A DNA stretch of 47,784 bases from Psilocybe cubensis (Eukaryota). A model generated the notes under the pieces. It was given only the letters and a program-made list of their open reading frames with translations. It had not been told where the DNA came from and made no database searches. Position 1 is the first letter of the stretch; every line of letters starts with the position of its first letter. The translations under genes were made by a program, and so were the position numbers. The stretch lies in contig JAFIQS020000016.1 of NCBI GenBank assembly GCA_017499595.2, forward strand, positions 124,001-171,784, in the 5' to 3' direction. Positions 9,229-47,784 of the stretch are shown piece after piece.

Positions 9229-9254
9229 TAAACCCTAAACCCTAACCCTAAACC
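9219..9254 (+). repeat. Telomeric repeats (CCCTAAA/CCCTAA)n, junction 1
   Basis: ccctaaaccctaaaccctaaaccctaaccctaaacc. Confidence 0.9.
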
Positions 9255-9760: not shown

Positions 9761-9774
9761 CCTAACCCTAAACC
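9753..9774 (+). repeat. Telomeric repeats, junction 2
   Basis: ccctaaaccctaaccctaaacc. Confidence 0.85.
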
Positions 9775-10280: not shown

Positions 10281-10303
10281 CCTAAACCCTAAACCCTAAA
10301 ACC
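10272..10303 (+). repeat. Telomeric repeats, junction 3 (to copia)
   Basis: ccctaaacccctaaaccctaaaccctaaaacc directly abutting copia gag sequence. Confidence 0.88.
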
Positions 10304-10333
10304 ATCGAATGTCATCGACTCGAAGCGGAAACA

Positions 10334-23993: not shown

Positions 23994-24027
23994 GTGAGTT
24001 CAGATGAATAAATGCAATATTGATTTC

Positions 24028-24400
24028 CACTGCGGGCGCCGACCGCTGTAAGTTAAACATACAGCAGAAAACTTACATGTCTTATGTAAGTTTCGCTGTA
24101 AGTTCGACATACAGCACACGTGTATGAAAAACAAACAGTCGGCAAAGACATATTGTGTTTGGTGGCTGTATGCCGACCAAACACAATTGCTGTAAGTAGA
24201 CTGTAAATAGAATAAACACCGAGATTACACAATTTCTTTTTGTCCGGTGTTAGTATAATATACACAATTGCTGTAAGTCATACAAACAGCACTTGTGTAA
24301 GTAAAACATACACACAAAGAAAACAAATTGTGTATGTCATACTTACACAATTCCTGTAAGTAAGTGCTGTAAGTTAAACATACACCTGAACTTACAGTAA
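24028..24400 (+). mobile_element. Putative CACTA-superfamily left terminus (CACTG) with subterminal repeats
   Basis: CACTGCGGGCGCCGACC followed by repeated GCTGTAAGT...CATACAGC/CTTACA motifs in both orientations. Begins abruptly within the NACHT intron. Confidence 0.65.
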
Positions 24401-24916
24401 TCGACTCGCTGAGCGAGTCGACAAGCGCGCGAAGAATTCGCATTTTTGGCGCGATGTCGACTCGCAGACGATGATAACACGATGGCATGCGTCGTTCTGG
24501 CGACTCGCTGCCCTTTGAAAAATCTCGCAGTCGTCAATGTGTAGTGCGCGATTCATTAATAAATATGATATATTTTCAGCGTTTTGCGCAATTCTATTTA
24601 TTACACTCGTTGGGTACTTAATATAGCTGGCGCCCTACCTGGCGCGCCTACACCCGACTCACCTGCAGACATTGAAAATTCTGAATCTTTGGCCTTCCCT
24701 AGTGTGAGTCTGCAGTGAGTACTTTAATCTGTTCGTTTGCCATCGTTTGTCACCACCATCTATAAATTGATCCCACTTACACAACTTTCCCGCAGCCTTT
24801 CTTATCACCAACCACAACCACAACCACTCACTCCCTCGCTCACTCGCTCTTACCGACTACCACCCACATCGATCTCCACACCCACCCGCTTATTCGTTAA
24901 CCGCGAATCTCTTACC

Positions 24917-25478
24917 ATGGCTGCACTCATCTCTCAAGTCGTTTCGGCCATCGTAGGCTTCAAGTATGGGTTGAAGCACAGCATCGCGTCGGGATGTTGG
25001 ATAACGGAGCGCGTATCCGCGTATGTGGGGTCGGTTTGTGGGGAGGTCTTTCGTTATATCGAAGAGCGTAGCGATACCCCGGTGATGGTCAGAGGTCGCA
25101 ATCGTACGCATCGTTGAATTTTTTTTTTTTTTGAATCTGCTCATCCCAGTTTCGTTAGGCGCTCAAATCACGGATGTCGAAGCCCAGAATTTACGCACCA
25201 CCGACGCTGACTGCAACGCCGACTTCGAGGAAATCGAGGACCTCCTTCGGATTCGTCAAGAAATAATGGATCTTCATACCCTTCTCGACAACAAACGCGC
25301 ACTCACCCGGCCTATGACGCCCGAAGCGCACAATATCAACATCGACCGATTCGCTCTCGACCATAGGCACCGGCTGAACGACATCGCTATCGAGGCGCAG
25401 ATTCGCGCCAAGTATCCGTCGAGGAACGAGTATCTCGCAATCTGCAAGAAATACGAGGTTTCCCCCTTCCGCACCTAG
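24917..25478 (+). CDS. Small hypothetical two-exon gene
   Basis: ATG at 24917 (MAALISQVVSAIVG...), an intron near 25087-25158, then exon ...DFEEIEDLLRIRQEIMDLH...SPFRT*. No family recognised. Confidence 0.4.
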
Positions 25479-25759
25479 CAGGCGTTCTCAGCGTCATTCC
25501 AGCGTCTTTATAACTTCTTGGGGGACTCACCCACTACCCTACTCCCCGTCAGCTTTTCTAATTGTTTTCTTGTTGTCTTGCTTTCGATTTTCGGTCTGCT
25601 GTATATACGCAATCAATTTCATACCCCACAATGTACCTAATACGTAGTCTACTGTTTCATATTGTACATGCTATACTGTCGTAAATTCAATGATTTTCAA
25701 GCCATTACAGAACTGATACAGTTCACAATGTACTTCTTGCACCATCTAACGTCGCTTGC

Positions 25760-27900
25760 AGGCCCAACTGGCTACGGCAGCGCGGACAAATTCTCCTGGG
25801 GCTACAACCGAGTACGTCGACATGGCGCGCGAGGGTATCGTTGACCCGTTGAAAGTTGTACCTGAGGTTCCGCGGCTGGAGCCTCGACGATAGGAGCCTG
25901 GTAATCCGCTTTGAAGGGTTGTAATTCAACTGCAACTGGAACATCAGAAACTAGAACCTGGGACAGGTTTTCAGGTTGAGAAGCACCCGAAACTTCGGCG
26001 ACTGGGGTTGTCCATAACCCGTGGTTCTTCCTCAATGCTCTCCTGCGCGGCGTCAACATCAACTGAGGGAGTTTCGGTAATCGAAGTTGGTGCCTCGGTA
26101 AGATCTGCTGCCAGAACAGGCGCAGATTTTTCGACATTCGAAGTTGAGACTTCGTCGGCGACGGCGGCGGTTTTCGTTGTTGTAGACGGTATGTCGTCAA
26201 CAGCGGCGGGCGATTTGACTCAACCAAAACCTCTGCAACCTCGGCAGGAGCTGCGACGAGAGGTTCTTTGGCCGCAGTAGCAAGCGGCGGCACAGACTCA
26301 ACGACTGGCTCTTGAGCTTCCGCGACGATTGCACTTGCACGCTCTTCAGAGACTTGTTTGAGCACTGGATCTTTGCTTCTGTTTCCACGCTTGTGACGAC
26401 TGGTGGTTCGGGCTCAACGACAGCGGGTTCATCTCGAGCTTCGGGCGTCTACAGCAGGAGCAATAGCTTCAGCTGTTGGAGCTTTGGGTTCCGGTGCAGA
26501 TTCGTCCACTTCAGCAACAAACGACGCCGACGGAGCTTCAGGTACTGCGACTTGAGATTCCGAGACTGAAGCTTCAACAGGAGCTGCGTCATCGTCAGTC
26601 GATGCATCCTATGTAACCACTGCTTCGACAACGGGGGCACGAGGTTCGATAGAAGTTATTTATGGTTCCACAGCGGTTTCCTGGGCCTCGACAACTGAGG
26701 GCGCATCCGTTGAAGGCTGCGGTTCGGAGACGGGTGCTTGGACTTGGATCTCTTCAACTGCAGCTTCACGTTCAGCTTCAACGGGTGCATCAAGAACAGG
26801 GGCCTCGACTTCCGTTGCAAAACTTCGGGTTCAGAGATAACAAGAGCCTCAGTGACAGGAGGAGAGACTTCTGCAGCTGGTGCTACGGATTCTGCAACAA
26901 CAGCAGCAGGAGTCTCGCTGACGGTGGCAGGCTCCTCAACAGCTGGCGCTGGTGCCTCTGCCTGAATTTCGACAGCTGGCTCTGGAATCTTAGCGGCAGG
27001 GGCAGCAGCAGCAGCTCCAGCGATTGCGTCTGTAATTGCGGCTCCAGTCACAATAGCAGCCGTCTCGAGGTCTGGCGTGTCGGATGTATCAGCAAGCTGC
27101 TTCACGGCCTCGACAGGTTTCTCGATAGGCATCTGCGCCTTCTCCGCCTTGGATGACTTGGACTTGGACGGCGCCGCCTTCAGCTGCACAACCTCCTGCT
27201 TAGCCTGCTCGGCGGGCTCCTCGATAATCTCTCCCATCTCGCCAACATTCAGCGCTCTTTCCTTCTTCTTGCCCTTCTGCGACGACTGCGACGAGCTCGA
27301 TGCAGTGCGCGACATACTCCAGAAGCTGAAGCGGTTCCTGCCCGACGTCGAGAGCGCAGGGGAGACCGGGCGCGCCGATTCCGGACGAGGGACAGCTGAC
27401 AGCGATGGTGGTGGCGCGGGCCGCACAGTGAACGCCTGCTCGAGAACAAGCCATTTGAGCGTCTTCTGCTTGCCGCCCTCTTGAACGGGGCCGTACAGAA
27501 GTTGAGGAACAACTGTGGATTTAAACTTGCAGATGATAAAGGTCGGCCATGTCGCTGTGATAGGATCGAGCAGCGAGTCGCTCCAGAAATCGATGAACGC
27601 TTCGTCAAGCTCGATGACTTCGAGCTTGGTAGCGCGGACAATGGCAGTCGTCTCCTTCTTGACAGGGTCTGCAAGCCGCGGGGGTGAGACGGGTGGTACA
27701 GGTTCAGCCGAAAAGTCGACGGTCTTCCTCGAAACGGCTTTGCTGCGCTTGCTCGACTTCCTCGAAAGCGTCGTGGTGACTGGAGTAGTCTTCTCCATAT
27801 CCGTGTCGAATAGCGTCGACACGAGCGGGGCCATTGCAGGCGTTGAGTCGAGGAAACCTGAGGCTGAGAACTGCACCCAGTCGCTGCCAATAGCAGAAGT
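25760..27900 (-). pseudogene. C-terminal fragment of a Msb1/Mug8-like protein gene with Ala/Glu/Pro-rich tail, frameshifted
   Basis: IELDEAFIDFWSDSLLDPITATWPTFIICK...KWLVLEQ resembles the basidiomycete Msb1/Mug8-domain protein C-terminal region. The low-complexity tail is broken across several frames. Confidence 0.5.
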
Positions 27901-27990
27901 GGCTGGGGGCTCCGTGGTGGACTTGGTACGGTGTCGTCACGTGCATGCACCAATTTATCTAATCTTATCTTCGGTATCTTGGTAAGTAGT

Positions 27991-28052
27991 ACCCCTAAGT
28001 CGAACTTGAAGTGCTTCGACAACCCCTAAGTCGAACTTGAAGTGCTTCGACA
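27991..28052. repeat. 31-bp tandem duplication
   Basis: acccctaagtcgaacttgaagtgcttcgaca x2. Confidence 0.9.
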
Positions 28053-28230
28053 ACTTCAGAAGCCACTCGACAATCGGGTCCAAATAGGGCAGGGGCATAT
28101 CGCGCTCGACGCCTTTGCAGAAATTGATGAGCGCCGATGCTGTGTGAGCGTGAACCCGCGGCTCAGGGTCTTCGAGGGCGGGGATGAAGACGGAAAATAA
28201 TTGTCGGTGGAAGCAGTGTTGGATGATTTC
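28053..28230 (-). pseudogene. PSE1: Internal fragment of importin beta-3 (Pse1/Kap121)
   Basis: IPALEDPEPRVHAHTASALINFCKGVERDMPLPYLDPIVEWLLKL matches the importin-5 motif RVxAHAAAALVNF...LxPYLD. Confidence 0.7.
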
Positions 28231-29139
28231 CTGTCCCGCGGGAGACACCGAATGTGAGAGTCTTGAGCGAGTTTATGATGGTTGCAGCGTCGTCGTCGTC
28301 GTCGTCCGTTTCGGACTCCATTTTACGCCGCCCGCTTCGCATTCAGAGCAAACAGGTCCACCACCCTCGGCGCAGACGAGTACATCATCGGGTCCCGGTA
28401 CATACGCTTCATCACCGTGGATAGCGATAGCACCGTCGGTGCCGGTGGGAGCTCCTCCGAGTCTGGCCTCGATCTATACGCATATGTCAGCGCTGCAAAA
28501 CTAACACACACAAAAAAAACGCGCCTGTTCAAGGAGAAACGACTTTCCAGACTATGCGCCGCATAAGGAGACAAAGAGTTGAAATTCCTCAGCGCACCAT
28601 TACCGAAGGAGAGGTCAGGCGAGATGGGAGACACCGAGCGCGCGGTGAACTGCGTGCTTCCGGCACTCTACGAGTCGCGTGCGTCGCGTCGTAGGAAGCT
28701 ATGTACGATGGAAACCAGATGGTGAGTGACCCATCGGGTTGCACATCCCACCAAACATTCACAATATCTACAGACAATATGCTGGCTCTCTTGCCTCCTT
28801 CTATGCATCCTGCGGCACCGTAAGCTGTGACGCCCGTCTCACACCCTCAGGATGTTATGCACAACACCAAAACAGTCAGCGGATCGACGGCGGAGGCAGG
28901 GGTATACGGGGGGCACAGTTATTGTGTATAGGCGGGCAGTTGCAGACCTGCGCGATGGAGTGTACGAGGCGCAGTCAGCGTGCACAGGAAGTCATCCAGA
29001 CACGAACGATGCGCAGGGAGTGTCCGGTGACTGTTATATCACGATATACGGAACATACGAACCACCCTCAACAGGCACACCTAACAGCTAAAATTTCTTT
29101 ATCAATAAAACGCGCATACAATCATTCCAAACACTCACA

Positions 29140-30200
29140 TTTCCTCTCCTGCCCAGCCGCCATCGTCTTTAACTTGGCATTATCCTGCTCCAGCGTGTCA
29201 AAGTCCGCCTGTAACTGCTCCATCGCCATCGCCTCCTCATACGCTAGCTCCTGCTTCCTCGACTGGCCAATTGTCCGCCTGCTTCTTCACCGCTCCAGCC
29301 ACCGCTCCATCAGCTCGATCTTTACTGTCGACTACTGGATCATTTGGTCTTTCGTACGTATTGTCCGCGCGAGACCTTGTATCTCGTCGCTGAACGACGA
29401 CACCGTCCATTTAGCTTCGACATTAACAGTCAAAACCGTCTGTCCAAGTTGTGGTCAAACGCGGTCACATATACCAACTTGCGCGCAAGGTCAGTATCGA
29501 ATCCATCAAAGTACGTCTCTGCAAGCTGATCAGATTGCGCTTCTATCCTAAATAAAGAAATGAAATTCAATGATCAGTAATGAGGTTCATATGGTGATGA
29601 CATCTTAAACATACTTGACGATGTCATTAACACACTCCATATCCCTAAACTCACCGCGCCTTAACAAGTCAATGTGCATATCGATGCGTTTCTCCGGGGG
29701 ATCAATTTCAGGGTACAATCTTCCGATATTCAAGAACCTCTCGACGTCGCACCGGCGAACCACCGCAGGGAAGCACTTGCACAGCGTCGACAGTCTTGAT
29801 ATTCTACCTCTCATCTATCAAAAAAGAAAGTGCGAGTGCAAAGGCGAAGCCAACAAGTCATAAATGAGCAATGGTGTTAATGATATCGAACAGGAAAGAC
29901 CACGCACCTCGCATACACCGACGATGGTGTCTGTGAAATCCCCCTTGAGCGTTGCGAGGGAGGTTGTGGATGTGCGCCACGACGTGGTTGTTGAGATCAG
30001 CCTTGTACCCCATACGCCGGAAGAAGAGGTAGCAGCTCGTCGCGTGGCTTGGACGTGTATTGTAGTAGGTAGGGCTACCTGACGTGGTTGTTGAGATCAA
30101 CCTTGTACCCCATACGCCGGAAGAAGAGGTAGCAGCTCGTCGCGTGGCTTGGACGTGTATTGTAGTAGGTAGGGCTACCTGACTTCTTCATTCTTCTACT
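29140..30200 (-). pseudogene. NIP100: Degraded, intron-containing fragments of dynactin p150 (Glued/Nip100/Ro-3)
   Basis: SCYLFFRRMGYKADL, TIVGVCE|MRGRISRLSTLCK..RRCDVERFLNIGRLYPEI..PEKRIDMHIDLLRR, LAETYFDGFDTDL and KIELMER...KKQAD...EQLQADFDTLEQDNAKLK, with stops, frameshifts and internal deletions. Confidence 0.65.
29981..30183. repeat. 100-bp tandem duplication
   Basis: 29981-30080 versus 30081-30180, with one visible mismatch. Confidence 0.9.
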
Positions 30201-30244
30201 CGCGCGTCTCCTGGGACATCAAGCGTCGAGTATAGTGTTTCAGC

Positions 30245-31900
30245 TCACCGGTGCAGACAGTGTTGGAAATGGCGTTCAGGCAACAGTCCCAATGCGGCTA
30301 CGTAGGATATGTGAAAGTCCCGCTGGATAAGGCCGGATAATACAGATGAGCGCATCAGGGTACAAGTCTCCTGTTCGGCGCACGCTGAGCGTGTTATGAG
30401 CGTGTTCGGATCCAGCCGGCCCGGAAGACCAGGAGCACCCAGCGCGTGGATCGTGCCAGCCCAGATACGAACGAGGCCAGAGAATGGACGTCTGTAGGTC
30501 TTGGGTCCTGTAGAGTTGTCCCTTAGTCTTGTCACAACCCAGTACCGCAGATGAACGTGTGAAGTACGACTTATCTTGAGACCTGAGAGATATGCTAGCA
30601 GAATTCCATAGATGATAGGTCAAACTGGGGACCTTCATGTTCCTCCATGTCATCAGAAGTGTCGATCTTCGTCTCTTCGTCTCGATCTTTTGAACTTATT
30701 TACTTCTTGGAGGATGTTCAGGTAGATTCTTTGTCGGGTACCAATGGTGCGAGGTGTGTGTTACACGGTAATATGGAATTTCAGGGCGCGCGCAGATAGT
30801 GTCGGTGTATAGGTTGAAAACACCAGCGTCGTTGGCTTCTGTCATGAACCCAGGAAGAATTAGTACATTGGAATCGCCATCAAGAAAAGGTCAATACTCG
30901 TAATGAGGCAGCATCGTTATTTCGTCGTTATGTTCGTACGACTTTTGTATGGCCACAACACGAACGAAGCTGGCCTCAATGATAAATCGCTTGAATTCTG
31001 ATTGGAGAGAAGGACTTGACCATGCTATGCCAGTGTTGAAGTGTTCTGTACACCCACCTTATCACTCCCAGAACCATCGCGAGCTGTCGAGTCGACGATG
31101 TGTTCCGTAACACACTCATCCCGTGTCCATCCCGTCAATGGTTGTCTTAAGGTAGTTCGAGGCGGCTTCGAACACGACCTCGCCCTTCGACCGCAGATTC
31201 ACCTGCCCATGGGACTGGGCTGTGGGTAGCAATATCCGGAAACTGTGTTACTAGGTGTTAATTGATGTGTAGTGATCAGAACAAAAATTATTTGCTTACA
31301 CTCGTGAAAGGGACGGATGAAACAGTACGCTGCTCGCCTGCTGAAGAAGTAGAGCTGCTCCAGCTGTCTGAGCTGTTCCTGGTGGTAGATGGGAGGGAAA
31401 AGAGGAGCTGCTCCGGGGTGCATGGGAGGAGCAATTTCAATCCTCGCCTCCTCGTGCATGATTCGCGACACGTCGACGTCATCCATGTTCTTCTCCCCAG
31501 AGAGTTCCTACCACAATTGTAAACCTTTGGCGGTCGAAGAGTCGACATGCTGGACAACACATCGAGCCACTAACATTCTAATAAGCCTGAGAGTGAAATG
31601 CTTCCAAAGACAAATTGCTTACCAAAGTGGCCTAGTGCTACTCAGCTTGCAGAGGTTGAGATACAGGGAGACAGGGTCGGCTGTCGAAACACGAAACACA
31701 GGCCAGCAGTCTCTGAGAGACTGCTGGCCTGTCATCCCCAACTTTTGCTTCGGGGTGTCGTAGCTGGGTTATCGTAGCTATAGGTTAAAACGGAAAATGC
31801 TTCTGCTTGGAAAATTACACTCACTTGACTTTCGTGCAGTAGTACTCTTCATGTTTTCCAACTCCAAAGCGTATGCTACACGCTGACAATACAAGGGAGC
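30245..31900 (-). CDS. Multi-exon hypothetical gene or pseudogene (boundaries approximate)
   Basis: Exon-like ORF 31199..31486 (MDDVDVSRIMHEEARIEIAPP...) with flanking GT/AG sites. No family recognised. Confidence 0.3.
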
Positions 31901-32099
31901 GCTCTACTTCATATACTCATTTGTTGGACATTAACTACATTCTAAAAGGTTCAAATGTCCTATAATACTGCGCAAGGTGTGTTGTATTAATCATTCTACA
32001 CTACGTATCGTACTTCATCCTAGGTGATACCATCGTGCCTGAGTGTGGGTTCATGCTAAGAGCGGAAAGTTGTCACAGTCACTTCAGTGCACTTGATAA

Positions 32100-33137
32100 G
32101 TGACAAGGATTTTCATGCCGTCGGTTTTTCAATACGGCATAGTGTCTTTCCGGTGTGTTTTTGCTGCCGTCTTTGATCCATATTTGCACGCTCTTTCTCG
32201 GCTTGAGCGGCATGAAAATCGTCCCTTCTATGATCATCGCGCGCTCATCGTTTCAATATGCTCTTGCAGGTATAAACAATGAAACCGACTTGGGAATGAA
32301 TCTCAAGTATTTGCGTACTAGTATGTTTTGCATAGGAAATGGCATTAAAACTTAAAATCACTGGCGTTAACATGAATTATACGAAAAAAAAATTATCGAG
32401 GTTCTAAGAATCGAGATAAAGAGAACCAAAAGAACAAGAAGGAGAGATATTAAAAGAGACCATGAGTGGAGGATGGGCGTGAAGATGAACGAATAACAGA
32501 ACGATGCTTCTGCTACACTGGATCGAGTAAACGTTCTGCACATTCTGCACTACAAAGGCACAGTAGTCAGAATAAATCAGTGAATAATTAGTTATGAAAT
32601 ACGAACCCGCTGGACTCTTGCCTAGCGATTTAATTCAATTTCAAGGTAATGTGAGCCCGAGGTCTGGGGAGAAGGGCTGTTCGGGTCGACGCCGGTAAAG
32701 AGATATATAATTCGGCCGCTGACAGATCGGTGAACAAAGATATATCGATAGGGGTTTCGAACTCCATGAACCCTCTATAAGCTAGGATTCAGAGATGATA
32801 ATACACATTTAATCAACGTACGCACCCCCATGATATTCAGCTCATTCTGCGACCAGATAACAGTGTCCCGTGCCTCTAAAATATTCCTTGTTGCCGGCTG
32901 AACAGCAATACGGAGGTGGATGTGGAAGGTAGGGATAGATAGGTGCCTCGAGATTGTGGATCGACGTTGGACATGTTGTGCAGAACGCAAGGTTGGAGAG
33001 GAATCCGGTGAATAGTCGAACCATTTATGATATTCCTCGTGAACAAGTTGAACCAAGAATAAAGTAACGAGGACAGATATCAAAAAGATAAAAGTGTCGT
33101 ATAGCTTGACTATGAGAAATAGCATGGGAGAAAGCAT
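32100..33137 (-). CDS. Hypothetical multi-exon membrane protein (3' end approximate)
   Basis: ATG at 33137, hydrophobic N-terminal segment FIFLISVLVTLFLVQLV, a GTGCGT donor near 32826 and further hydrophobic exons. Confidence 0.35.
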
Positions 33138-33437
33138 GGTGGTAGGGGTGGAATGAGTTGGAGGTTGACTTCGCGTTGGTCCTTTTAAGCGTCTTTGAGG
33201 CTTTTAACATAAAGAACAAAGGCCTAAATAACACGATTCATTAGAAACAAAGAGGTAAACGATTCGGGCCGTTTAAGCGGGTCAGTACCCCACGGAACTG
33301 GCCGTTACTCAAATGCGAGTCTGACGCGCCTCCTACGCGACCAGTGAGTGAATTAAAGCGAGCTGTTGCAGTGTAAGTTATGGGTAGATCTGATCTCACG
33401 TAAAGGTCGTAAAATCGTAATCGTACATACAAATCTA

Positions 33438-36400
33438 TTAAACGGATACAACTCGAGATAAACTTACACAAACGGCAACTTCTTTCCCTTCCCATTGAAT
33501 GACGCACTTGGAAAAATGAGTATCAACCATAGACAAGGGAATGACCTCAATGAATTCCTCCAATTCGTTGCTCCATATTTTTGCTCTAAGATGTTGATAC
33601 CGCATATAGGGGTCGACCTTGATTTTTGCAGCGCGAAATGGTTTTGCGACAAGCCAGACATCGTCGTATAGAAGTGGCTTGCGGAACACTACAATGTTCT
33701 GGATGCAATACGGACCCGAGGGTGTCAGAATCTGACTGTTTCCTTCATGGATGGAAGAACTGGTGTATGAAATGCGGCCCGATGTATATCGATTTATTAA
33801 GTTTGCACGAATATGACGAGTAGATACCAGCTCAGCGCTGCCTTGGAAGAAGTTTGTAAATGCATTGAGAATGTTGTCGGGAAGTTCAACCTCCAGTCTG
33901 TCGCGATACAGGTTATTGTCAAGGATGATATCTGTATCTTGATCGTCGGTTCCAACCGCCTGCACCTTGTCCGTAGCGTAGTTTGCAAGGAAATTTTGAT
34001 TCTGAGGTTGGACGATGCTCTCGAACATTGAAGCGCACTTGGCAATGATAGGAGGGCAGGTGACCTTGGAAAACAGTGCCCTAAGATTGCTTCTTCTATG
34101 CCACGATTCTCCAATCGTAGCCTCATACTCGCCTATCACGTATTGTTAGGTAGAGCATGAGAGTTCTATGATTGACGGCTTACCAGGATGGTAATTAGTA
34201 TGTATTTGTTGCAGTGTCCCAATCATACGCTCGAAAGGGAACGTCCACCATCCATGAACAGGCCCATACGCCGCAAGGAATTCCCCAAGATGCATTGCCA
34301 TGTGGTGATTGGGATGGCAATTGTAGTCAGGAAATAAACGTGCCAAATTTTGACGGTACGTGAGCATATGCCCAAGATACAACCTTTCATGTGCAGCAGA
34401 GGTTGTCCGCGAAGTGATGACGGAGACGGCTTGGAATAACTCCATCGTCATGTTGAGGAGATCTCGACGTTCCTGGCTGGTAGTGTCTGTCCCATCTGAG
34501 GACCATAAGCGTATGAGAGTAATTGGGAGGTAAACAGATCCCGCCGCTCGCCATTGATCCGACTTTAACTTCGGTCCAGAGGAAGAGATTGATATAGGAA
34601 TAGTGGTTGCCCATGATGGTTGCACTATCGCGCTGATATCTCGTCGCAATTCGTCCATTTCCTGCGAGGTCAATATATATCCCTGCCTGCCGGCTAGTCC
34701 AGGAGAGGTGACGGAGGCCGGTAGTACTATTGGCTGTCTTGATCGCTAAGGAAAAAGCGAAGACAACGGTAAAATTGATCAGATTTATGATCTTGAGAAA
34801 AGGCGTGCAACGAACCCATTCCACTATTAGTTTTGCCAGCTCCGGCTTGTGATACCTCTTATCAGGATCACGGGAATCCCTCCCGTTCTCGGTAACAGTG
34901 CTCGGGATGCATCCAAGTCCTCTGCCAATGTAGATCAAGGAGACCAGGTGGCATCCCTTCCCAGCCCAATGTTTGGCATGTTTGTCAATCGTTGACTGTA
35001 GGTCCGATCCATGGAGAAAGGGCTCCTTAAGCCATCCTTCCAAGCGTCTGATGCTCGCTTTTTGCTGGACGTTGAAGCGATCGGGGTCCAAATTATTGGC
35101 ATCGTGAGCAAATAGACGGCCTGCATGGGCCGCAGATTCGGGAAGACCACCCATCGGAATCTTCTTGCATCCCAAGATATTTTGGAAGTGTTCCTTTACC
35201 AAACCCAAAAATAGGTTGTGCATTGGATCTATGGGAAGATGCTTGGTTGCGTCGTAGTACGGCAAACGAAGCAACTCCGAGGAGCGAAGTCCTGACAAGT
35301 CAAAGGATCTATCCGCCAGGTCCTGAGTTTGTGCATTGCGATATTTTTCCGAACGATTTCTACAGGACTCGTTGGTGCGCCATGTCCAGGTCGTATAGTC
35401 GATGTCGTTGTAAGTGTTCTTGGTTTTGCTGCAAGTACAAACTGAACAGAAGAATTCGTGACTATGTGAGGAAAAACCTCCGATTTTTCGAGCAGCAGGA
35501 AGATCGGCGATAATAGCAATGATAGCGCAATATATACATCGCCCAAGCTCGTAAAGAGCCGTCTTTGAAAAGCGAACTCCATCCCAGAATAGCAGTAGTG
35601 CGTCGACCAAAGGCCGCAAGTACGGGTTAAGGGCGTCCAGACTTGGCTCAGAAGGGCCAGGGATAATACCCGCTAGGAATATATTCTCAGGTTTGTAGCG
35701 GATATCGATAGGAAGATTGAGACATATCAGCGCGATGACGCCAATTGACACCTTTTTCCCAGCTGCCAAGTTCCTCAGAGGGTTGAAGAAATCGAATCCA
35801 AGAGAAAATAAGTATCTCCCGGAGTCCTTGTCGCCGATTTTGCCGAAATGCGTCCTTTTGTCGTGTCCTTTGAAGTTTTTGATGCATGTCGCCTGGAAAA
35901 TATCCTCGATATCGCCTTCGTTTTCTTGCATTCTATCCCATGCTGAATCCATCGTCTTCTCATAATTGCGGCGTGATAAGAGATTGGCCATCCAGTCATG
36001 GAAGCTGAAGGCAATGTATGGCTTTATTGGAGCGTTAATGGTGGCTTTCCCCAAACTGTTTTGGGCGAACTAGCAATTCTCTGCAGGACCTGACAGGGCC
36101 ACCTTGCTTGTGAGGCCTTCTACGTGCACGACACTTCTCTGGGTATATGGGAACGCCAGACTCCAATTTTGGCGGATAAATTTCGTGACACTTGGGGCAT
36201 GCTGCATAAACAGTGCTTTCCGCATCGATATTGAAGTAGCTCGTCGCCGTACGAACGTCGCGAGGGAATTTGGAGAGGAGAAGTTTGATTTTGTTCGGAA
36301 GGGTAGAGTGACTGGAAGAGCCCAAGGCACTGAAGGCTGTTTGTTCAATGATAAATTCGGAAATTTGAAAAATCCAATGGCAACCCCGTCGAGGAACGCC

Positions 36401-37188
36401 AAAAATAACTTGGACCGACACGACCATGAATGCAACCAACTGCAAGATGGTAGTTGCGGATTCCAGGATGGGCTTAAAATGTCGTCCTTTTCCATAAATA
36501 TTAGCCTAGAACCATATCGAATGAACTTTCGGTTACCTGAATTGTACATAGGAGTCGAGGCGGCAACTGTTTCGCGTTTCCCAAACTCCTTCCTATAGAG
36601 AGTTTCGATTCGCTTGAGATCATGCTGAAGTAGGCCGAGCTGCATTTGCGCATTATCGATGAGTGTTTTGATAGAAGGATCCTTTCGGATCGCCGAATGT
36701 TTGGCTGTGGCCAGCACTGTCGCAGATCTTTCGATGAATCCATATGCTGAGGAGCACTTATCCAGTCCTCCAAGTAATGCAGAGTCGGTGAGAGGTCCGG
36801 GATTAACTTGCAGAGCTTCTATCCCTCGTTTGTGTACGTCTGTTTCATCCAACAGGCCACCAAGCTGAGCTGCCACTCTCTTTTTCGTTTCGAAGCGAGA
36901 ATCGGAATCAGATAATTGGGATGTGAACGATGGAATTGATTGAGGGTCCGACAGTGATAGACGACTCAACGCTTCTTCAATGGCTTGATCATGCTTAGCG
37001 AGAGTTTTTGATTGTACATCCAAGGCGCGTTGCTGTTGCTTTAGGTCTTCTTCTTGTTGGCGTCGCTGATGTGCTCTGAAGTCCCTGGGTTTAAGTAATT
37101 TCCCCCTTCGATTAGTTCCTGGGTCCACATTATCGTAGCACCCGTGGACTTTACATATGCAGAGTCGATCGCCTATTGCAGGGGGCAT
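33438..37188 (-). CDS. CACTA/EnSpm (Tnp2/Transposase_21-type) transposase, intron-containing, with an apparent frameshift near 36050
   Basis: FSLGFDFFNP, LICLNLPIDIRYKPENIFLAGIIPGPSEP, LRPLVDALLLFWDGV, ADLPAARKIGGF...FCSVC, IDPMHNLFLG, KLKSDQWR, PNHHMAMH and YGPVHGWWTFPFERMIGTLQ are hallmark CACTA transposase motifs. Confidence 0.88.
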
Positions 37189-39038: not shown

Positions 39039-39293
39039 GAGTAGAATTGGTGGAGGAAAACTAACTGCCCGTATCGCGTCGTGTGTTATATGTATATACC
39101 TTGCCTTTGTTTAACGACACGCCCATTTGGGCCTTTGCGCATGTACTTGATGATAAACATCTTTGCCTTTATTAAATTTGGCACATGTCGCTACACAAAA
39201 AAAACACCGAAAAAACACCCAAGAAATACGTACGCAAATTAAGAGACATAAAATCCGCAAAAAGTTGGTACACGATGGACTAGTTACATTGCA

Positions 39294-42015
39294 CTACTGA
39301 TTTTGACTAGGTCCGCGATTATGCATAGCTCGCGTTGTATTCATGACACGCCAGTTCAATTCTCTTTCTTTCTTTGTTTCGGGAACAGTACAAAGAAACT
39401 GCGGATCGAGTTCCAATTGCTCGCCAGTTAAGGAATCAGGCGAGCCGACGGTCCTGGCCACAACGGATAGAATAATGTTGATTTTCTTGGTTAGCTGATC
39501 TAGTCGGTGATGAATGCGACGAACGTATTTGCCGCTGTGATCTCCTTTTATGACGACGAGAAGGTTGTTGTCGTGAATTGGATGAGGGTATTTAGGGGTG
39601 ACCCAACGGGGTTCTAATGAAATCCATGTGTGATATTTTTTATGTCGGAGAACAACCTCGTTGCCATGAAGCTCGATAGACACTGCAATTAGCTGCTTAG
39701 AAAAATCTCCGCCGTCAACTACAGCATTCAGTTTAACTCCCACGAGTTTTGGGTTCAAGAGGACATGTGGGGGTGGTGCTGGAGGCATCCACAATGGATC
39801 AGACGCCACGGAATCAGATAACGGAGTTCTCGAAGAGGGGTCCCAAGCTGGACTAGGTGGAGAAGACAAATTATTTGGTGCTGGTGTCGGAAGGGGCGTT
39901 GCACTACCAGACGGCCTCTCCATCAGATAAGGGTGATGGGCGGATGTATCATGACCTTGCTCGGGTTGCGGCGTAGACAAAGTTTGCGTTGGGGTAGGTC
40001 GAATATGACCCTCACCGGGATCAAGGAACAGGACGAGCTCAAGAGAAGATCTACGTTGAAAATAATGAGTGTTGCATGACCTGTGTGAGATGGAATGCGC
40101 TTACGCAAATTCAACGACGTCGTCGTAACGGACTGATATTCTGTGAAATGGGGCATTCGGGTCGTATCGCGTCAACTGCATGTGCAACGTTATAGTATTG
40201 TCATCGAGATTTTCCTTGACATCCTGAATTACTCCGTATTCGCCTTTTCGAGGATGGTGCTGCTTAGATATCTTCACTTTTACTCCACACCATGGATGTG
40301 GAGGCGTCTTGGGAAGGGGACCAGATTCTGGCTGGCGCACATAAGGGATTATGGCAGTTTGTTCTGGCTCGTGCTTGTGGTGCAGCACGACGGGCTCCTT
40401 TGCAATGTCTACAAAGTTGACAAAAACCTCTGTTGACTGTCAAGAGATAAGTAAGCCAATAGAGTTGCAAAAGTAGAACGAATAACAAAATGGAGACCTC
40501 ACTTCAATGACCTCGTCACCATCCCTAAAATAAGTAGGTATTTCACCTTCAAACTTCTTGCTGACAAAATGAACTCGATCATCTTTGAGAGCAACTACCC
40601 AGCCTGTCTTGCCAGTATGATGTCCACCCCGTACACAAACATGTTGTCCGATTTTAACATCCTTCCTGATTTCTTGCCACGGCACACGTTTTGTTGGGTT
40701 GTCGGCTAGAGGTACACCGTGTGTCCCTATTTCGAGGACTTCCGCATAGTAGGTATCCATAACCTTCAAGATAGCTGGGGCAAAAAACGACGTAGAGGTT
40801 GAAGGGGTGCTGCAAATGAGAACCGCGTCGCCTTCTTTCAAAGTCCATTCGCGCGGGCGTGGCATATGCGAGCGATTAACTGCTGGGTGTTGGCTCATTC
40901 TAAACATGGTGTAGAAGTCATGGGGTATGTCCTTGACGTTAACTGTGAATGAACGGTGGTCCAAATTTTGGGCCAGAAGCCCTTGTTCGAAGTCCATATC
41001 GCGAAAGCAGTAGCAATCAGGCCCACGGCTCTGCACGTCGGTTGGGAAAAGCTGTCGAAAGTGATCCGGATCGAAGAGCTTAGCAGCCGGCTTAACAGTC
41101 GATGATTTTCGCTTGAGGGGGTTCTGTGGGGTCGTATGTAGCCGAGGAATGAGGAGAATACGGGCATGTTGAAAACTTTTTTGTGAAACCACGCCAACGT
41201 CTCCCTTGTACAAGCCTTTCTTGATGACTACCCATGCACCGACGTCCACGGGACCATCCCTCATCCCAAGCACTTGACTATACTCTGAAGAGTCGATGAG
41301 CTGTCGTTTGATACCCAAGCCGTTACGCAGTACACCTGGTGTCCGTAGAAGAAGGTCGACGAGGGCTTGGTTCATTTTACATTCGATATAGATACTGCCC
41401 TGTGTTGATCCTCGAGTGAATGCGGAACGAACCTGATGTACTTCCGAGACTGTGCTGAGCAGAGACATCACAGCCTGTTCTTCAATACCAACCTGCGAAG
41501 ATCCATTCAGTTTAGAACGCCCAGTGTCAATAACGGTAGGGTACGCACTCTACATTCAACCCGCCACAGTGGATAATCATCCGCCCTAGGTATGTACAAC
41601 AAACCATTGTCATGGAGTGTATCGTCTGGATCTTCAGGAATGGCGAATCCCCCATCTCCCGCGGCATTGATTCTGGACTCGATGCGCGAAATCAAGCGCT
41701 CTAATGCTCCCTCGGTATGCCTATGAACTGATAACTGGGTCGGTAGAACGGAATGCCCAACATCCGGGGGTGTATCATCGTCGATGAATCCATCTCAATG
41801 GCAAGGGTTATATTAGTAGGGTAAATGTGTTTGAAGTATAATATTCACCTTCTCTATCTATTTCTCCGGATCCCGTCTGTTCGTCTTCCTCAGAAATTTC
41901 GTCGTCAACTTGAGCTTCGGTGTCCAGGAACTGGCGGATTCTGGGATCTATCTGTAATAATGTTACTAACCTAAACGGATTAAGATATCAAGGAATCATG
42001 ACATACCTTCTTCAT
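39294..42015 (-). CDS. Divergent Spt5-like transcription elongation factor (acidic N-terminus, NGN domain, multiple KOW motifs)
   Basis: Spliced MKK|IDPRIRQFLDTEAQVDDEISEEDE...|DGFIDDD...PRADDYPLWRVECR|VGIEEQAV...SAFTRGSTQGSIYIE (NGN); KOW motifs VGAWVVIKKGLYKGDVGVV...LLIPRL, IGQHVCVRGGHHTGKTGWVV, GVKVKISKQHHPRKGEYGVIQDV and LLVVIKGDHSGK; a CTR-like PAWDPSSRTP. Confidence 0.82.
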
Positions 42016-42615
42016 TGCGATTTTCGCGAAACACTCTGGTCTGCGCTACACTGCTTGTGCTGTGTGGTCATCAGCTGGTCGTTATTAAGACACGATCGCA
42101 TCATATTTTCTTATTGTGCTCGTAGGTGGAGACTCGTTCAACTCATGTATTTTTGTTTTTTTTGTTATTCACGTACATCACCTCTAGCTAACTTCATACC
42201 AACATTGTTTAAAAACGTACCTATGGTTCTGCTACTCAAGGCTGTCGTTAACGTTGAGGAAAAGAGAAAGCGTGAGAATATGTTGAGTAGCTCAATATGT
42301 ACCCCTCGGAATTTCAAGCCGCTCAAGCCGATTATCGCGTGCGGTATTCTCCTCGGCAACGCGGCTTGAAAATTCCGGGGGTTCATCATGGCGTGGTCGG
42401 CATTTTCTCACGGTTTCGTTCTCTTTCCACCCATAACACACCATGTCGCTCAGTGCGTAAGTAGTAGTAAATATATTTACAGTAGATCGTAAATATGTGT
42501 ACAAATTAGTTTACAAACGAACGAAAGTCGGAACGATGGAGAACCGCCAAAATAAGACAGGAAACAGAAAAAACAGGAAACAGAGCAGAAGACGCTCAGA
42601 TAGAGCAGAAGTCGC

Positions 42616-43181
42616 TCAGGGCATTGTGAAGGAGAGGTCCTTTGGGATGCGGAACCTTGGCTGTTGGCGAACAGTTTCCACAAACCTAGGTACTGTTAGC
42701 GTTCTTCTATACTCTCAGTATCGCCAGCTCACCTCTTCACTGCGTGGTCAGCCAACTTCCCATCCCGTATGGTGAAATTGACGAGGTCCAGACTTAGACC
42801 TTTGCGGAACACGACGACATCCCCTCTCCATCGTGCATTTCCCCAGCGTCTAAGAGATTTGTTGCGAGGCAGAAACTTGTGATTCTTAACGAAGATATGA
42901 AAGCGTGTAGTCCGCCCTTTGTTAACGATCGACACCACGCCGTCATGTATGTGTGGCTGCAGCGATTTCCCGCCCATCAATAAGTCCAGTCTAGGACTCC
43001 TCCCGCTCGCGTTTGCAAGAGTGTGTATTTTCTTCGTTACAGCACGGTTTGCATCGACCGCATAATATCTGGCATTAAGGGTCATATGGAGATCCTTGGT
43101 CGAAGTGAGTCGTTATTCATATAAACTTCGATTTCATCTCACCCTTGTAGTCGACCGGAAGGTCATCAACGATGATACCAT
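42616..43181 (-). CDS. Small basic hypothetical protein (three exons)
   Basis: ATG at 43181; main exon ...QPHIHDGVV...FHIFVKNHKFLPRN...WRGDVVVFRKG...; last exon FVETVRQQPRFRIPKDLSFTMP*. Confidence 0.5.
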
Positions 43182-43385
43182 GTCGGCGAAAAAGTATGGA
43201 GGTGGATGTGGCGGTAATTAGGGAGGAAAGTATGAGGCGCGAATACGGTTTGGCTGCTATCTTTTAGGTGAGTCCCTCTTTGTTTCCTTATTCCCGGTAT
43301 TCACAAAGAGTTTTTGAATAAAGAGCCCCCATCTGAGTGTACAAAAGGTGACCTCGGGAAGGCAGGCATCCTCAGTATCATACCC

Positions 43386-46300
43386 ATGTCGTCCACCCGA
43401 CGGGAAACGTTGCCCCTCAAGGAGAGGATCGTGGCCTTACTTACTCCTTCGGCAACTGGATCTTCCACTGATCAAGAACCCTCCTCAATGGACACATCAC
43501 CTGATTACCCGACGGAACGTCTAGAACAAGTAGAACAAGGAGGAGCTGGAGCTACTTTGTCCAACGCTACGCCTTCTAATGTAGCGGTTTCTTTTCCAAT
43601 TCCTCCACCCGGACCTGCCGCAGATGAACACGGTGCACGTACAGCCTCCATTGCTCCCTCTGTTTCTCAGCCCACCAATGGCGCTAGTTTGACCAATCAG
43701 GTTCCTGTAAATGCGGTTATTCTCTTACCACCCCGGCTTGCTGCAGATGACCAGGGAGCCCAAGGATCTTCAGTCCCAAATCGTGTTGCTCCCTCTGTTT
43801 CTCAGCCCAGCAATGGCGCTAGTTTGACCAATCAAGCTCCTGTAAATGCGGTTACTCTCTTACCACCCCGGCTTGCTGCAGATGACCAGGGAGCCCAAGG
43901 ATCTTCCGTCCCAGATCGTGTTGCTCCCTCTGTTTCTCAGCCCACCAACGGCGCTAGTTCGATCGATCAGGCGCCTTTCCGGTTTGCTACAGATGTTCGG
44001 GGTGCCCAAGGATCCTCCATTGCGAATAGTGTCTCTCGGCCATCCGCTGGACATATCCCACGGATTGGGTCTTCCGACGTGCTTTTTCCTGGACATTTCC
44101 GACAGAACGAGTCTTCCGCCAACACTAATCCTCCTCCGAACCCTGAAACGTCTATGGACATTGATCCTACACTACCTACGTCGTCAAATCCCAGTAGCAC
44201 CTCTACATTTCCACGGTTTTTTATACCCGTTTTGTCTGGAAATTTGTTCAATTTCACTAGAAGTGATCCGAACCAGTCTAACCAGTCTAAGGCGAAGAAA
44301 CGACGAGCTGCACCGGAAGACCATACCACCAAAGTCCAAGTCATCGAACAGAAAGACGTCGACATCGCAGAGCTGAGCAAGCAACAGGCACGTTACCCAA
44401 AATCTACTTTTCTTGTCATTTATGTATTCATTGCTTTTTTAGATCAAGCAGAGGGAAGAGGTGCTCAAGAAAATCATTGATGATGAACGAGCGGAAGTAT
44501 GTTAATTTATTTCCTATGTTGCAAGATTTGCGTATTTACCACCATCGTACAGCTAACTAAGTCGAAGAATGCCATCAAAAATGCTGAAAAGAAAGCAGAA
44601 AGGAGCAAAAAGGAGGTAGAGGCTGTACGTTCGCAGTATACCAAGCTGTCGAAGGCAATGCGGACGGAGAAGGAGAGCTCCAAAGGGCTTGAAGAAACTG
44701 TTAAAACTCAACAAGGCGACCTCTCGTCAGCGTTGATCAAACTTCGGCGTGCAGAGTCCTTATCTAAAGCATACGACCGCCAGCGTCTTGAAGCTCAGGA
44801 GCGTCACGAGAAAACGAATGCCGATCTCGAAGCTGCGGTTGCTTCGCGAGGTCAACAACTCTTCGCACAAATCTCAGATTTAGAAAACGACATCGCTCGT
44901 CTGCAGCAAGAGAAATCCAGCGAAGTCAGTACGTTACAGCGGCAGCTCCAGCAAGCAAATTCGAGGATTGAAGATTTAAGTGCCTCACAAAATACAGCGG
45001 CCCTTGCACAGGAACAAATTAGCTCTCTTCAGCAACAGCTCCGGGACGCGAATTCGACAATTGAAAATCTCAACGCATCGCAACGTGCAGCAGCAACGTT
45101 ACAGCAGCAGCTCCAGCAAGCAAATTCGAGGATTGAAGATTTAAGTGCCTCACAAAATACGGCGGCCCTTGCACAGGAACAAATTAACTCTCTTCAGCAA
45201 CAGCTCCGGGACGCGAATTCGACAATTGAAAATCTCAACGCATCGCAACGTGCAGCAGCAACGTTACAGCAGCAGCTCCAGGCAGCAAATTCGAGGATTG
45301 AAAGTTTAAGTGCCTCACAAAATACGGCGGCCCTTGCACAGGAACAAATTAACTCTCTTCAGCAACAGCTCCGGGACGCGAATTCGACAATTGCAAATCT
45401 CAACACATCGCAAAGTGCAGCACACGCACAGGACCAAATCAATGCTCTCCAACAACAGCTAGAGCGCGCAAACACGACACGTGTGGAAGATCAACAAACT
45501 ATCACGGGCCTCAATGAACGGTTGCGTGTTGCGTCAAACGAGATAACCCGCCTTACAGCACAATTACAAAACCAGCGAGAGGAGTCGCAGAAACAGTATC
45601 ATGCGCTCGAACGCGATCTCAAGTCCCAAATGGATCTCCATCAACAAAAATCAGCGGACGCCGAGAACGCTCTGAAAGCAGAGCAAACTAACCGAATGGT
45701 TTGTCTGTCAATCTTTAATCATGGCATTGTTGCTGATACAGAGCACAGGCCGAGATGAATCAAATGAAGGCCACTTACGAGGATACGGTGGTAGGATTCT
45801 AGTTTAGCCTATGCCTCAACAAATCCGACTGATAAGGTATCATTATTAGTCCAGCCTGCGTCTCCAAGTTTCCAATCTGGCACAACAATGTCAGGCAAAT
45901 CAAGGTCGCTTGAACGAGCTGGAATCAAGCAATACCGAATTCGGTAACACGACAAGTGCGTTGGAGGACATATTAAAGAACGAACGAATTAAGAATGAAG
46001 TAAATCTGTTCCCCTCCTTGTCAATCTTCGATTCTGATCACACCTCCAAGGTTTTGCAGGCTCGCATTAATTCAGTTATGAAGAACAGAACTCACAATAC
46101 TGAGGATGATTATGAACCAACGGAAATTAGGAGGTTGGATGCCCGGCGGAGGCTGGTATGTTAAACAATCCATTCGTACGTAGTACCTAATAATTTACCT
46201 CGATGTCTTCTAGATTGGGATCAACAAGCGCAATGCCGGGTTTTCTATACATTCACGAGTACGCAATAATGTATGTGGTGATCTTGTTGATCCTAACGAG

Positions 46301-47784
46301 GTATCTTAGATTGCCCAGCGCGGACAATCAGCTGTTCCACCGTCAAATCCTCCTCAAAATGAAGCCTCGAGGGATGAAGATGACGAAATGGTAGATAGTT
46401 CTCCGCTCCGGAATTCGCCTCGAGCTCCCAATTCGTCACCCCCGCTGGACTCAGACGACGAACATATGGAAGATGGGACAACACACCAAAGACCTGTTCC
46501 AAGATCAGCATCACCTCGGCGATATATAATTCCGGGTTTTTTTCCTACAAGATATACCACAATTCCACCATCTCAAAGACGCAGGGATTCTAACCGCGCG
46601 ACCCCTATCCCTCCTACAGGTCAGTCAGCAACAGAGCGATACTTTGCCGCTGCTATGCAACGGCTAGGGCGCCTTCCCGCTTCAAACTCTACCATAGCGC
46701 CTACCTCTGCTACCTCTGCGGTGAATGATCCTTACCGTGCTGCCTATCAAGCTCGTCATGCGACCCGCCCTACTGTCAGTCCTGTCGTTGATCGTACAGT
46801 TCCAGCGATGCCTACCACGCCAACCACGCCAAGACATTCGGCCTCCGAAGTGCGAACGTCTAACACATCTGTCCCTCCCAACTCCTCAACTGCAAATCCT
46901 CAACTCGCTGCCTATCAAGTGCGTCATGCAAATCGCTCTGGTGCCAGTACAAATCCTCAACTCGCTGCCTATCAAGCTCGGCACGCAGAACGCTCTGGTG
47001 CCAGTGCCCAGCGCGCAAAATCTCCTGCCACTGCTCAGCCGGCTCCTCCGATGGCCAACACGCCAAGGCATCCGACTTCGACCGTTACGGCTCCCAATAT
47101 GCCTTCAGACGATGATCAGCACCCTTCGCCACGACCCAATACCGATAACATGCTGATTGAATGTATACAAACTATGACTGCCAGTGTCAACGGCTTGCGG
47201 GATGATTTGGCAAACGGAAGAGGACCCAGAGTACGTCAGACGCCTACGAAAGTCAAGTCTCCCTTCAAAGAGAAGGCTCCAGCTAGGCCTCGTACAATTG
47301 ACCGCACACAGTTGACGGTATAGTTTTTACTACCTATATATCAATGCTTTACTTAAGCCCAGAATTTTTAGCAAGCAGTGCGCCTACATCTGCGCAAATG
47401 TCTCGATCTCCCTGCAGATCATCGTGACAGCCAAATCTACTCCGATCTTGATAATATTCACATCGCCGACGAGGTTGAAGTGGATCGTTTAGAGCGCCGA
47501 CGACGAGATCCTCCGACGATGACACCTTTCCAGTTGTATTTTGACAGAGTCAACACACAATGGAACCGTCACATGGCAAACCTCTTTGCAGATTCTTTAG
47601 TGCGACAATATCCAGAATATCGGGGGCAAGAGGAAGAAATTGAACAATGTTTCCTTCGGCGTCTCACTACTCTAAGGGATTACATGTCCAACGCCATGCC
47701 ACGGGGGGATGAAACTGAACAGGATGCGGGAAATAGACTGTTGATGGAGAAAGAGGGACGCGACCGGTTTAAGCGGGTTCGTCG
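43386..47784 (+). CDS. Large multi-exon protein with tandem repeats, long coiled coil and Pro/Ser/Thr-rich region; runs out of the window
   Basis: Long exon ORFs 43386-44390, 44530-45698, 46313-47317 and 47371-end, separated by ~55-nt introns. Confidence 0.7.
43651..43970 (+). repeat. 135-bp (45-aa) coding tandem repeat, about 2.4 copies
   Basis: ttgctccctctgtttctcagccc at 43651, 43786 and 43921. Confidence 0.9.
44931..45425 (+). repeat. 165-bp (55-aa) coding tandem repeat, 3 copies
   Basis: acgttacagc.gcagctccag at 44931, 45096 and 45261. Confidence 0.9.
46893..47006 (+). repeat. 57-bp (19-aa) coding repeat, 2 copies
   Basis: caaatcctcaactcgctgcctatcaag at 46893 and 46950. Confidence 0.85.

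Follow-up and report, generated by a model that had tools for sequence, protein, structure and literature searches.

A 47,784-nucleotide (nt) stretch of the Psilocybe cubensis genome (contig JAFIQS020000016.1, positions 124,001 to 171,784 of the forward strand), here called the window, contains at position 24028 the end of a CACTA/EnSpm-type DNA transposon. This end lies within the intron behind the P-loop exon of a NACHT-type, NLR-like gene, and the gene is reduced to a 5' stump. The sequence from this end to the edge of the window includes a transposase, an Spt5-like gene and a host-derived block, and we give about even odds (a probability of roughly 0.5) to the reading that all of it belongs to one large, composite element of CACTA type, which would measure at least 23.7 kb, sit in the NACHT intron and have its right end outside the window. 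The coordinates of all features are collected in Table 1.

The interrupted gene is recognizable from its 5' exons. On the plus strand, the sequence before the terminus reads ...EIHTIVEWLTPI...LLLDGK, followed by a short intron, an exon finishing in GKPGSGKTIIA and then GTGAGT. The annotated 98-amino-acid (aa) model P0065 matches this stump at 100%; it covers positions 1-30 of the NPHP3_N domain, and with about the first 30 of 164 positions kept, the domain is truncated. When the 55-aa NACHT exon was used as a query, 749 proteins were retrieved at E ≤0.001. Five proteins including P0065 were scanned for domains, and NPHP3_N was found in all four relatives among them (P0136, P0077, P0089 and P0102); the NACHT family was listed for P0136 and P0077, and ankyrin repeats were present in three long relatives. 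The rest of this gene does not lie in the window, as a tblastn search with 150 of the 749 relatives gave 151 matches, all of them at 23663-24105. The initial annotation had described a CACTG terminus with subterminal repeats directly after the Walker A exon of a NACHT gene, and this was confirmed, with the exon ending at 24004 and the boundary in the reads being exact.

Evidence on copies was taken from public reads, metagenome contigs and protein look-ups. Four runs, X12, X13, X9 and X10, were mapped to positions 23501-43500 at a likeness of 90%. X12 and X13 are raw-read runs bearing the same species label as each other, X9 consists of the contigs of a run containing 85% of the words, and X10, which has a small word share and another organism label, gave short low-depth pieces and is noted only in passing. 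Reads with loose ends exactly before 24028 numbered 970 in X12 and 956 in X13, and the flanks of these reads agreed at only 0.34-0.35, indicating that the terminus sits in many different flanks. The first bin reached a depth of 275.8 against a flank of ~16, from which a depth of ~1,250 was estimated over the 140-bp arm (24028-24167). Compared with a median of 14.5 at 29.5-43.5 kb, this arithmetic estimate corresponds to roughly 85 copies of the arm. High repetition is confined to the first 120-320 bp from 24028.

Within the window itself, the terminal sequence CACTGCGGGCGCCGACC is single at up to three mismatches (shuffled controls matched in 3 of 100). The 8-mer CTGTAAGT has six forward copies at 24046-24367, and elsewhere in the 47.8 kb it occurs as one reverse copy at 24390. 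Other members of the family diverge from the window copy at 24143, 24294 and 24350, where the alternative sequence shows an agreement of 0.92-0.95. Furthermore, opposite-strand read joints (24350/24352 and 24027/24296) and go-back joints (24105>24028 and 24255>24028) show foldback-like short members, together with members nested in or abutting each other. The family of the 24028 end is active-looking, and its roughly 80-90 other arm copies are mostly short foldback elements or resemble MITEs (miniature transposable elements with inverted repeats).

A candidate empty site was found in X9, which comes from another strain. One X9 contig agrees with the NACHT flank as far as 24027, where it passes into 70 different letters, consisting of 17 intron letters that end in AG and then GGCGATTGTCATT. 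Together, 34 intron letters of the window and these 17 of X9 make an intron of 51 nt, and the exon after the join reads ...TIIA-AIVI, where the relative P0136 has TIIASIVIDYL (GKTIIASIVIDYL). A 23-nt piece of this continuation was not found in the window with up to three mismatches allowed. TTC precedes the insertion point in the candidate site. The X9 flank is present in two versions, with one contig at 23742 having a depth of 37.3 and a 1-base gap, out of a total of 64.1. The uninterrupted version may represent either the second allele or a closely related paralogue.

The region from 24.5 to 47.8 kb yielded no second terminus. A blastn-short search with 24028-24420 gave no match of more than 15 nt in the rest of the window, the best CACT-type inverted pair around the transposase had 17 of 24 matches and was without a target duplication, and there were no repeat clusters in 30.15-33.48 kb. 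The search was extended to a metagenome set, in which an alignment of the transposase and 14 relatives yielded 80 loci with Tnp2 relatives (540 kb). The 22-nt terminus had no match in the metagenome contigs, and neither CAC..GTG inverted pairs nor longer inverted repeats flanking the transposase were detected in the long loci. The GGCATGAAAATC motif and a palindrome at 42266-42417 were considered as termini and were rejected on examination. The initial annotation had found neither the matching right end nor the rest of the NACHT gene in the following 23.7 kb, and both absences hold in the blastn-short and tblastn searches; likewise, no separate termini of the transposase were recognised within the window in the searches for CACT-type pairs, clusters and arms.

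The transposase matches Transposase_21 (PF02992) with 48 bits at a cut-off of 28.6 (E 1.1e-12) and aligns with residues 83-1349 of a 1364-aa Gymnopilus protein. Its nearest relatives are from Agaricales, the best being from Gymnopilus dilepis (55%). In alignment with 14 relatives, the 560-aa core ORF (open reading frame) was seen to keep D93, D189, C208-x2-C211 and E293. A one-base frame break at 36049, in a run of C, is the sole clear break in the window's transposase, and it is missing from X12 (22 of 22 reads), X13 (14 of 15) and X9. The transposase looks usable, since it retains its DDE residues together with the C(2)C motif and the break is missing in three runs. In its C-terminal part, 60 nt (34209-34268) are common to a multi-copy relative, and 135 X12 reads depart at 34268 with an agreement of 0.99, at ~9x the local depth.

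Genes that recur beside related transposases were identified by comparing the 314 window ORFs of at least 60 aa with the 80 Tnp2 loci. At E ≤1e-5, nine of them matched, seven being pieces of the transposase and the other two lying at 42732-43112 (the small ORF) and 47372-47782 (the edge ORF). At E ≤0.01, the small ORF was found in 8 of the 20 loci with >5 kb upstream or >7 kb downstream, where 5-8 kb separate its relatives from the core of the transposase. The edge ORF was found in 4 of the 31 loci with >2.6 kb upstream, including L045 and the three closest relatives L001-L003, and L045 has the same order as the window, namely the edge ORF (divergent), the small ORF and the transposase. The recurrence of the small and edge ORFs with Tnp2 indicates that the family's own gene set spans from 33.4 to beyond 47.8 kb. 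The two orphan ORFs between them are divergent from the Spt5-like gene, with ~200 bp in between.

The Spt5-like gene encodes an NGN domain (28 bits) and weak KOW motifs, and its protein matches solved SPT5 at E 7e-28 over residues 132-579; identity to the P. cyanescens counterpart is only 54%. No NGN or KOW domain was found in the 10 ORFs between the small ORF and the transposase in the relatives L015, L019, L038 and L045, and when six Spt5-like proteins were searched by tblastn against the metagenome loci, only the small-ORF part was matched. Since neither the Spt5-like body nor the block to its left (24.4-33.4 kb) was found at Tnp2 loci, both appear as lineage-specific additions. In L038, the space separating the small ORF from the Tnp2 transposase is occupied by an ORF with weak likeness to kinases (4024-5073; Pkinase, E 9e-5), and Tnp2 relatives may thus carry other passengers where the Spt5-like gene sits here. 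In X10, one contig departs after 39273 and another joins at 42140, bracketing the Spt5-like body, which hints at a copy with this body replaced or missing. Two protein-cluster look-ups returned basidiomycete clusters only, without names.

The left block contains a complete gene for the 618-aa protein P0215, for which 31 other matches at E ≤0.001 were found in other fungi (35-59% identity) and which has no Pfam domain. It also holds an importin-like fragment and a dynactin fragment, the latter containing a 100-bp tandem duplication at 29981-30180. The initial annotation had listed a CACTA transposase, an Spt5-like gene and host fragments without an intact housekeeping gene; the listed items are all present, and the complete, conserved 618-aa gene has to be added to them. 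Outside the block, an ORF at 2859-3467 (minus strand) has a weak IPO5-like TPR match (E 3.2e-5); a relationship between it and the importin-like fragment at 27955-28272 was considered and rejected, the sequences not being alike.

The distribution of these genes in the P. cubensis annotation bears on the extent of the element. The window-encoded proteins P0059 (Spt5-like, 100%), P0215 and P0065 are identical to annotated P. cubensis ones, and gene order was inferred from the order of accession numbers. The 618-aa protein is annotated at three places on three contigs (KAH9474225, KAH9476161 and KAH9480908), and the window's Spt5-like exons at five places (KAH9474229, KAH9476157, KAH9476183, KAH9476447 and KAH9480904). 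At three places the accession numbers of the two models differ by exactly four. The annotation has the NACHT stump only once, as KAH9474223, two numbers from the 618-aa gene. As the 618-aa and Spt5-like genes occur together at three places and the NACHT stump at one, the left limit of the repeated unit falls at 24.0-25.8 kb, where the terminus lies. A large mobile unit would be expected to leave identical multi-gene copies on separate contigs, with unique flanking sequence starting at the terminus, as is the case here. An exact look-up of 10 simple ATG-to-stop ORFs for locus counting found none of the 10.

Several observations weigh against a single element and favour a different reading, in which the terminus and ~5 kb of host block form a non-autonomous element or half-element, the transposase, Spt5-like gene and third ORF belong to another CACTA element, and the two, separate or nested, do not transpose jointly. 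The right terminal inverted repeat (TIR) and the target duplication are not within the window, so that the size and unity of the element are inferred. Read depth is uneven in X12, X13 and X9, being ~85-fold over the first ~140 bp, ~2-fold at 24.4-29.3 kb and 1-fold at 29.5-43.5 kb, with the step from 2-fold to 1-fold lying at ~29.3 kb (X12 and X13) or ~28.8 kb (X9). In X12, the depth at 24.8-28.2 kb is 18.5-32.9 and that of the NACHT flank 15-17; indels at half frequency occur at 25118, 26820, 26895, 29122 and 29292, together with a repeat-number variant at 26898-26955, and over the 21 bins of 29.5-43.5 kb that gave the median of 14.5 the differences from the window are all-or-none. In X9, contig 9 (24191-25551) has a depth of 77 and later contigs 38-43, so that against neighbours at ~41 the second copy carries the inner part of the terminus. 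The strains of X12, X13 and X9 thus have a second copy only of ~24.2-29.3 kb, including the inner arm, and the rest is single-copy. An intact parent dynactin gene was considered as the source of this second copy and rejected: the extra Cs at 29122 and 29292 leave the frame closed, and the second copy is therefore another degenerate copy and not the parent. Moreover, two annotated Spt5-like places (KAH9476183/184 and KAH9476447) are without a recorded 618-aa model, so that the halves also occur apart, and the ORFs of 24.4-33.4 kb had no match beside the related transposases in any of the 80 loci.

Partial copies or separate elements would account for places that have the Spt5-like gene alone and for a read copy confined to the left block, and the uneven depth is fitted by nested or partial copies as well as by one element. 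Nevertheless, the searches revealed neither a terminus or TIR pair nor a cluster of subterminal repeats separating the two blocks, the drop in depth is located within the dynactin fragment, where there is no recognisable boundary, and the spacing of the 618-aa and Spt5-like genes is constant at the three annotated places. We consider separate or nested elements rather unlikely on this balance, and of all alternatives this one survives best. Concerning the single large element that the initial annotation had inferred, a real end, linked copies, the lack of a second terminus and conserved partner genes of the transposase up to the right edge of the window speak for it; the unity of terminus and transposase is not shown, and the depth is uneven. 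Its suggestion that other copies be compared for shared gene content was followed by the same mixed outcome, with the 618-aa and Spt5-like genes linked at three places and two Spt5-like places standing apart.

The copy numbers of annotation and reads also differ, as there are five Spt5-like loci in the former versus one in the three runs, which could reflect strain variation or assembly redundancy. The expected depth is ~35-fold (an estimate from 1,632 million letters over ~46 Mb). If the runs are from two-nucleus mycelium, 1-fold may mean presence in one nucleus only, and the window could then be a variable haplotype rich in transposable elements (TEs). These points, too, count against the single-element reading. 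Between X9 and the window (23501-43500), C>T and G>A make up 90 of 195 differing places and A>G and T>C 49; at 30.4-36.1 kb, 15 of the 19 listed X9 differences are C>T or G>A. This bias may be a deamination-type signature in a TE region.

Alternatively, 24028 may be a solo end: a short foldback member would have inserted in the NACHT intron, and ectopic recombination or aberrant transposition would have joined its left arm to distant DNA, with the remainder of the gene and the right arm now elsewhere. The presence of the left arm only, the abundance of the family with nested or abutting copies in the reads, and the TE-rich window, with a Copia element at 10.3-14.3 kb and a MITE resembling a Mutator-like element (MULE) at 20.96-22.07 kb, are consistent with such an event. 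On the other hand, the arm is continuous with the sequence of the second genomic copy from 24191 at the latest to ~29.3 kb, and three places have the block together with the Spt5-like gene, which a single rearrangement would not yield; we therefore hold a solo end to be improbable. An assembly chimera, in which the NACHT flank was mis-joined to the DNA from 24.4 kb onward through the ~320-bp high-copy repeat, is very improbable, for although 151-nt reads are too short to extend from the flank to the first copy-specific sequence (~24191) and the join is without read-pair evidence, several longer repeats in the window are crossed unbroken, nine runs from three studies (X1-X9) hold 85-99% of the words of 23301-33300, and in the annotation the accession numbers of the NACHT stump and the 618-aa gene differ by two.

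Returning to one composite element as the preferred reading, we propose its organization and behaviour as follows, the mechanistic steps being inferred from established EnSpm behaviour. A CACTA/EnSpm-type DNA transposon would have inserted into the intron behind the NACHT P-loop exon. Behind its terminus would come the host-derived block, comprising a small ORF, the whole 618-aa gene and the importin-like and dynactin fragments, and next the family gene set on the minus strand, with a third ORF at the edge, the small ORF spliced to the Spt5-like gene, and the Tnp2 DDE transposase. The transposase would bind the subterminal repeats and cut at the CACTG ends, moving the element by cut-and-paste with a 3-bp target duplication, and the short foldback relatives would be mobilised in trans by the element. 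The right end would lie beyond 47784, where the 17-nt terminus is expected in reverse complement behind clustered ACTTACAG motifs.

Table 1. Features at and behind the transposon end in the window (positions are those of the window; ORF, open reading frame)
Feature	Position	Strand	Remarks
NACHT (NPHP3_N-type) NLR-like gene, 5' exons	23663..24004	+	ends with Walker A exon ...GKPGSGKTIIA
Interrupted intron, start	24005..24027	+	GTGAGT...
Terminal 17 nt CACTGCGGGCGCCGACC, CACTG end	24028..24044	+	exact boundary of high-copy family
Subterminal region	24045..24400	+	six forward CTGTAAGT in short palindromic units GCTGTAAGT..ACATACAGC
Second local motif cluster	24401..24520	+	CGACTCGC four times at 24402-24510, one of them reverse
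Small orphan ORF pair, probably two exons	24917..25478	+	no Pfam family
Complete 618-aa protein gene, P0215	25775..27834	-	'hypothetical protein JR316_0007510'; no known domain
Importin-beta/HEAT-like fragment	27955..28272	-	weak match, HEAT E 0.01
Dynactin (p150) gene fragment	29100..30190	-	broken frames; PF12455, E 1.5e-20 and 2.6e-6
Stretch like N-terminus of second P. cubensis Spt5-like paralogue	32829..33068	-	P0063 residues 1-89, 33% identity
Tnp2/Transposase_21 (CACTA/EnSpm) transposase gene	33441..37188	-	PF02992 match, see text
Spt5-like gene body	39297..42049	-	acidic N-terminus, NGN, KOW; exons identical to P0248, P0250, P0059
Small ORF P0251	42732..43181	-	spliced onto Spt5-like gene in some models (P0250, 942 aa)
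Two orphan ORFs, coiled-coil-like	43386..45755	+	135-bp and 165-bp tandem coding repeats
Pro/Ser-rich ORF and edge ORF (47372-47782)	46310..47784	+	edge ORF leaves the window

Autonomous CACTA elements of the En/Spm type (EnSpm, CMC) and their deletion derivatives are known from plants. The stretch behind 24028 would work like such an element with gene capture. Its left terminus, subterminal repeats and transposase type fit CACTA/EnSpm. Features in common with these elements are the CACTG terminus, subterminal repeats in clusters, the Transposase_21/Tnp2 DDE transposase bearing a C(2)C motif, additional genes of the element, and a large number of short, non-autonomous relatives alike only in their ends. 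Different from these elements, it is at least 23.7 kb long with its right end outside the window; in place of a TnpA-like protein, the second gene consists of a small ORF of basidiomycetes joined by splicing to an Spt5-like NGN-KOW gene; and the interval from the end to the transposase contains an entire host-type gene as well as fragments of host genes. For fungal EnSpm elements, the available part of PMC12730594 gives 5'-CAC..GTG-3' ends, a 3-bp target duplication and the C(2)C motif, and that of PMC5751038 describes them as abundant in Agaricomycetes.

Gene-capturing CACTA elements of plants include, in the portions of the sources at hand, the Pack-CACTA elements of Arabidopsis (PMC6379663) and a 20.5-kb CACTA element of soybean (PMC2613891). 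With these, the stretch has in common pieces of chromosomal genes (dynactin and importin-like HEAT) in a CACTA context and a size in the 20-kb range. Pack-type elements are described in those portions as non-autonomous, whereas a transposase is present here at 33441-37188 and the host is a fungus; furthermore, the candidate captured pieces here are dynactin and weak HEAT fragments, and only one terminus is seen. The presence of the transposase indicates that this is not a classic Pack-type element.

Fungal DNA transposons with extra genes have also been reported, including TET/JBP-bearing EnSpm, Plavaka and other elements (PMC12730594, available part). Like them, the stretch belongs to the CMC group and encodes proteins besides the transposase. 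The Pfam scan covered 30 stop-to-stop ORFs of 24-47.8 kb, shorter ORFs being outside it, and no TET/JBP family was found among these 30. Plavaka termini, as given in the same part of that source, are TGT..ACA or CATCA..TGATG, in contrast to CACTG here. The giant cargo-carrying Starships of Pezizomycotina, as far as the sources at hand describe them, resemble the stretch in being large fungal insertions with several passenger genes and in interrupting a host gene. In contrast to Starships, the mobility gene here encodes a DDE transposase and the host is a basidiomycete. A DUF3435 tyrosine-recombinase 'captain' was found in none of the 30 scanned ORFs, indicating that the stretch is not a Starship. 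Our literature search found no paper on Psilocybe CACTA elements or on giant DDE cargo transposons in Basidiomycota, and supplements such as the termini tables of PMC12730594 may hold related families.

A further-reaching reading, which we regard as doubtful, is that a basidiomycete DDE (CACTA) transposon serves as a carrier of cargo in the manner of Starships, being a unit of at least 24 kb that moves whole host genes, including an Spt5 paralogue fused to an element ORF, with one to five copies between strains of one species and one copy having knocked out an NLR-type gene. If so, the element may use the Spt5 paralogue to push its own transcription through silenced chromatin.

Other repeats lie elsewhere in the window. 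At 20960-22070 there is a 1.1-kb non-autonomous element with imperfect GGGCA... inverted ends, ~20 subterminal GTCAGTGCA motifs and a perfect 9-bp target duplication, GTATATCGC, at 20951-20959 and 22071-22079. A 9-bp target duplication is a hallmark of Mutator, and this element is Mutator-like rather than CACTA. The region 4160-10308 contains an ORF of 1188 aa (4812-8378), for which neither Pfam nor PDB gave a match. On either side of it are repeats of ~660 bp that are almost the same (4160-4818 and 8573-9231), which continue as tandem units of 520-534 bp ending in short, telomere-like CCCTAAA arrays (8491-8551, 9219-9254 and 10272-10303). Ty1/Copia-type pol sequence follows at 10286-14290, where Pol_BBD, gag_pre-integrase and RVT_2 (E 2.3e-51) are spread over two neighbouring frames.

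To our knowledge, giant fungal cargo transposons have so far been tied to the tyrosine-recombinase Starships of ascomycetes. If the single-element reading is true, a mushroom DDE transposon acting as a giant cargo carrier would widen this Starship-based picture, and the Spt5-like gene fused to an element ORF would be an unusual passenger and a candidate transposon-encoded transcription or anti-silencing factor. If the region is only a nest of elements, it would be of an ordinary kind, rich in TEs and variable between strains. An NLR-type gene is cut short by the insertion, which one allele of another strain appears to lack, and the truncated gene together with the apparent empty allele would provide a concrete case of transposon-driven variation in the non-self-recognition repertoire of a fungus.

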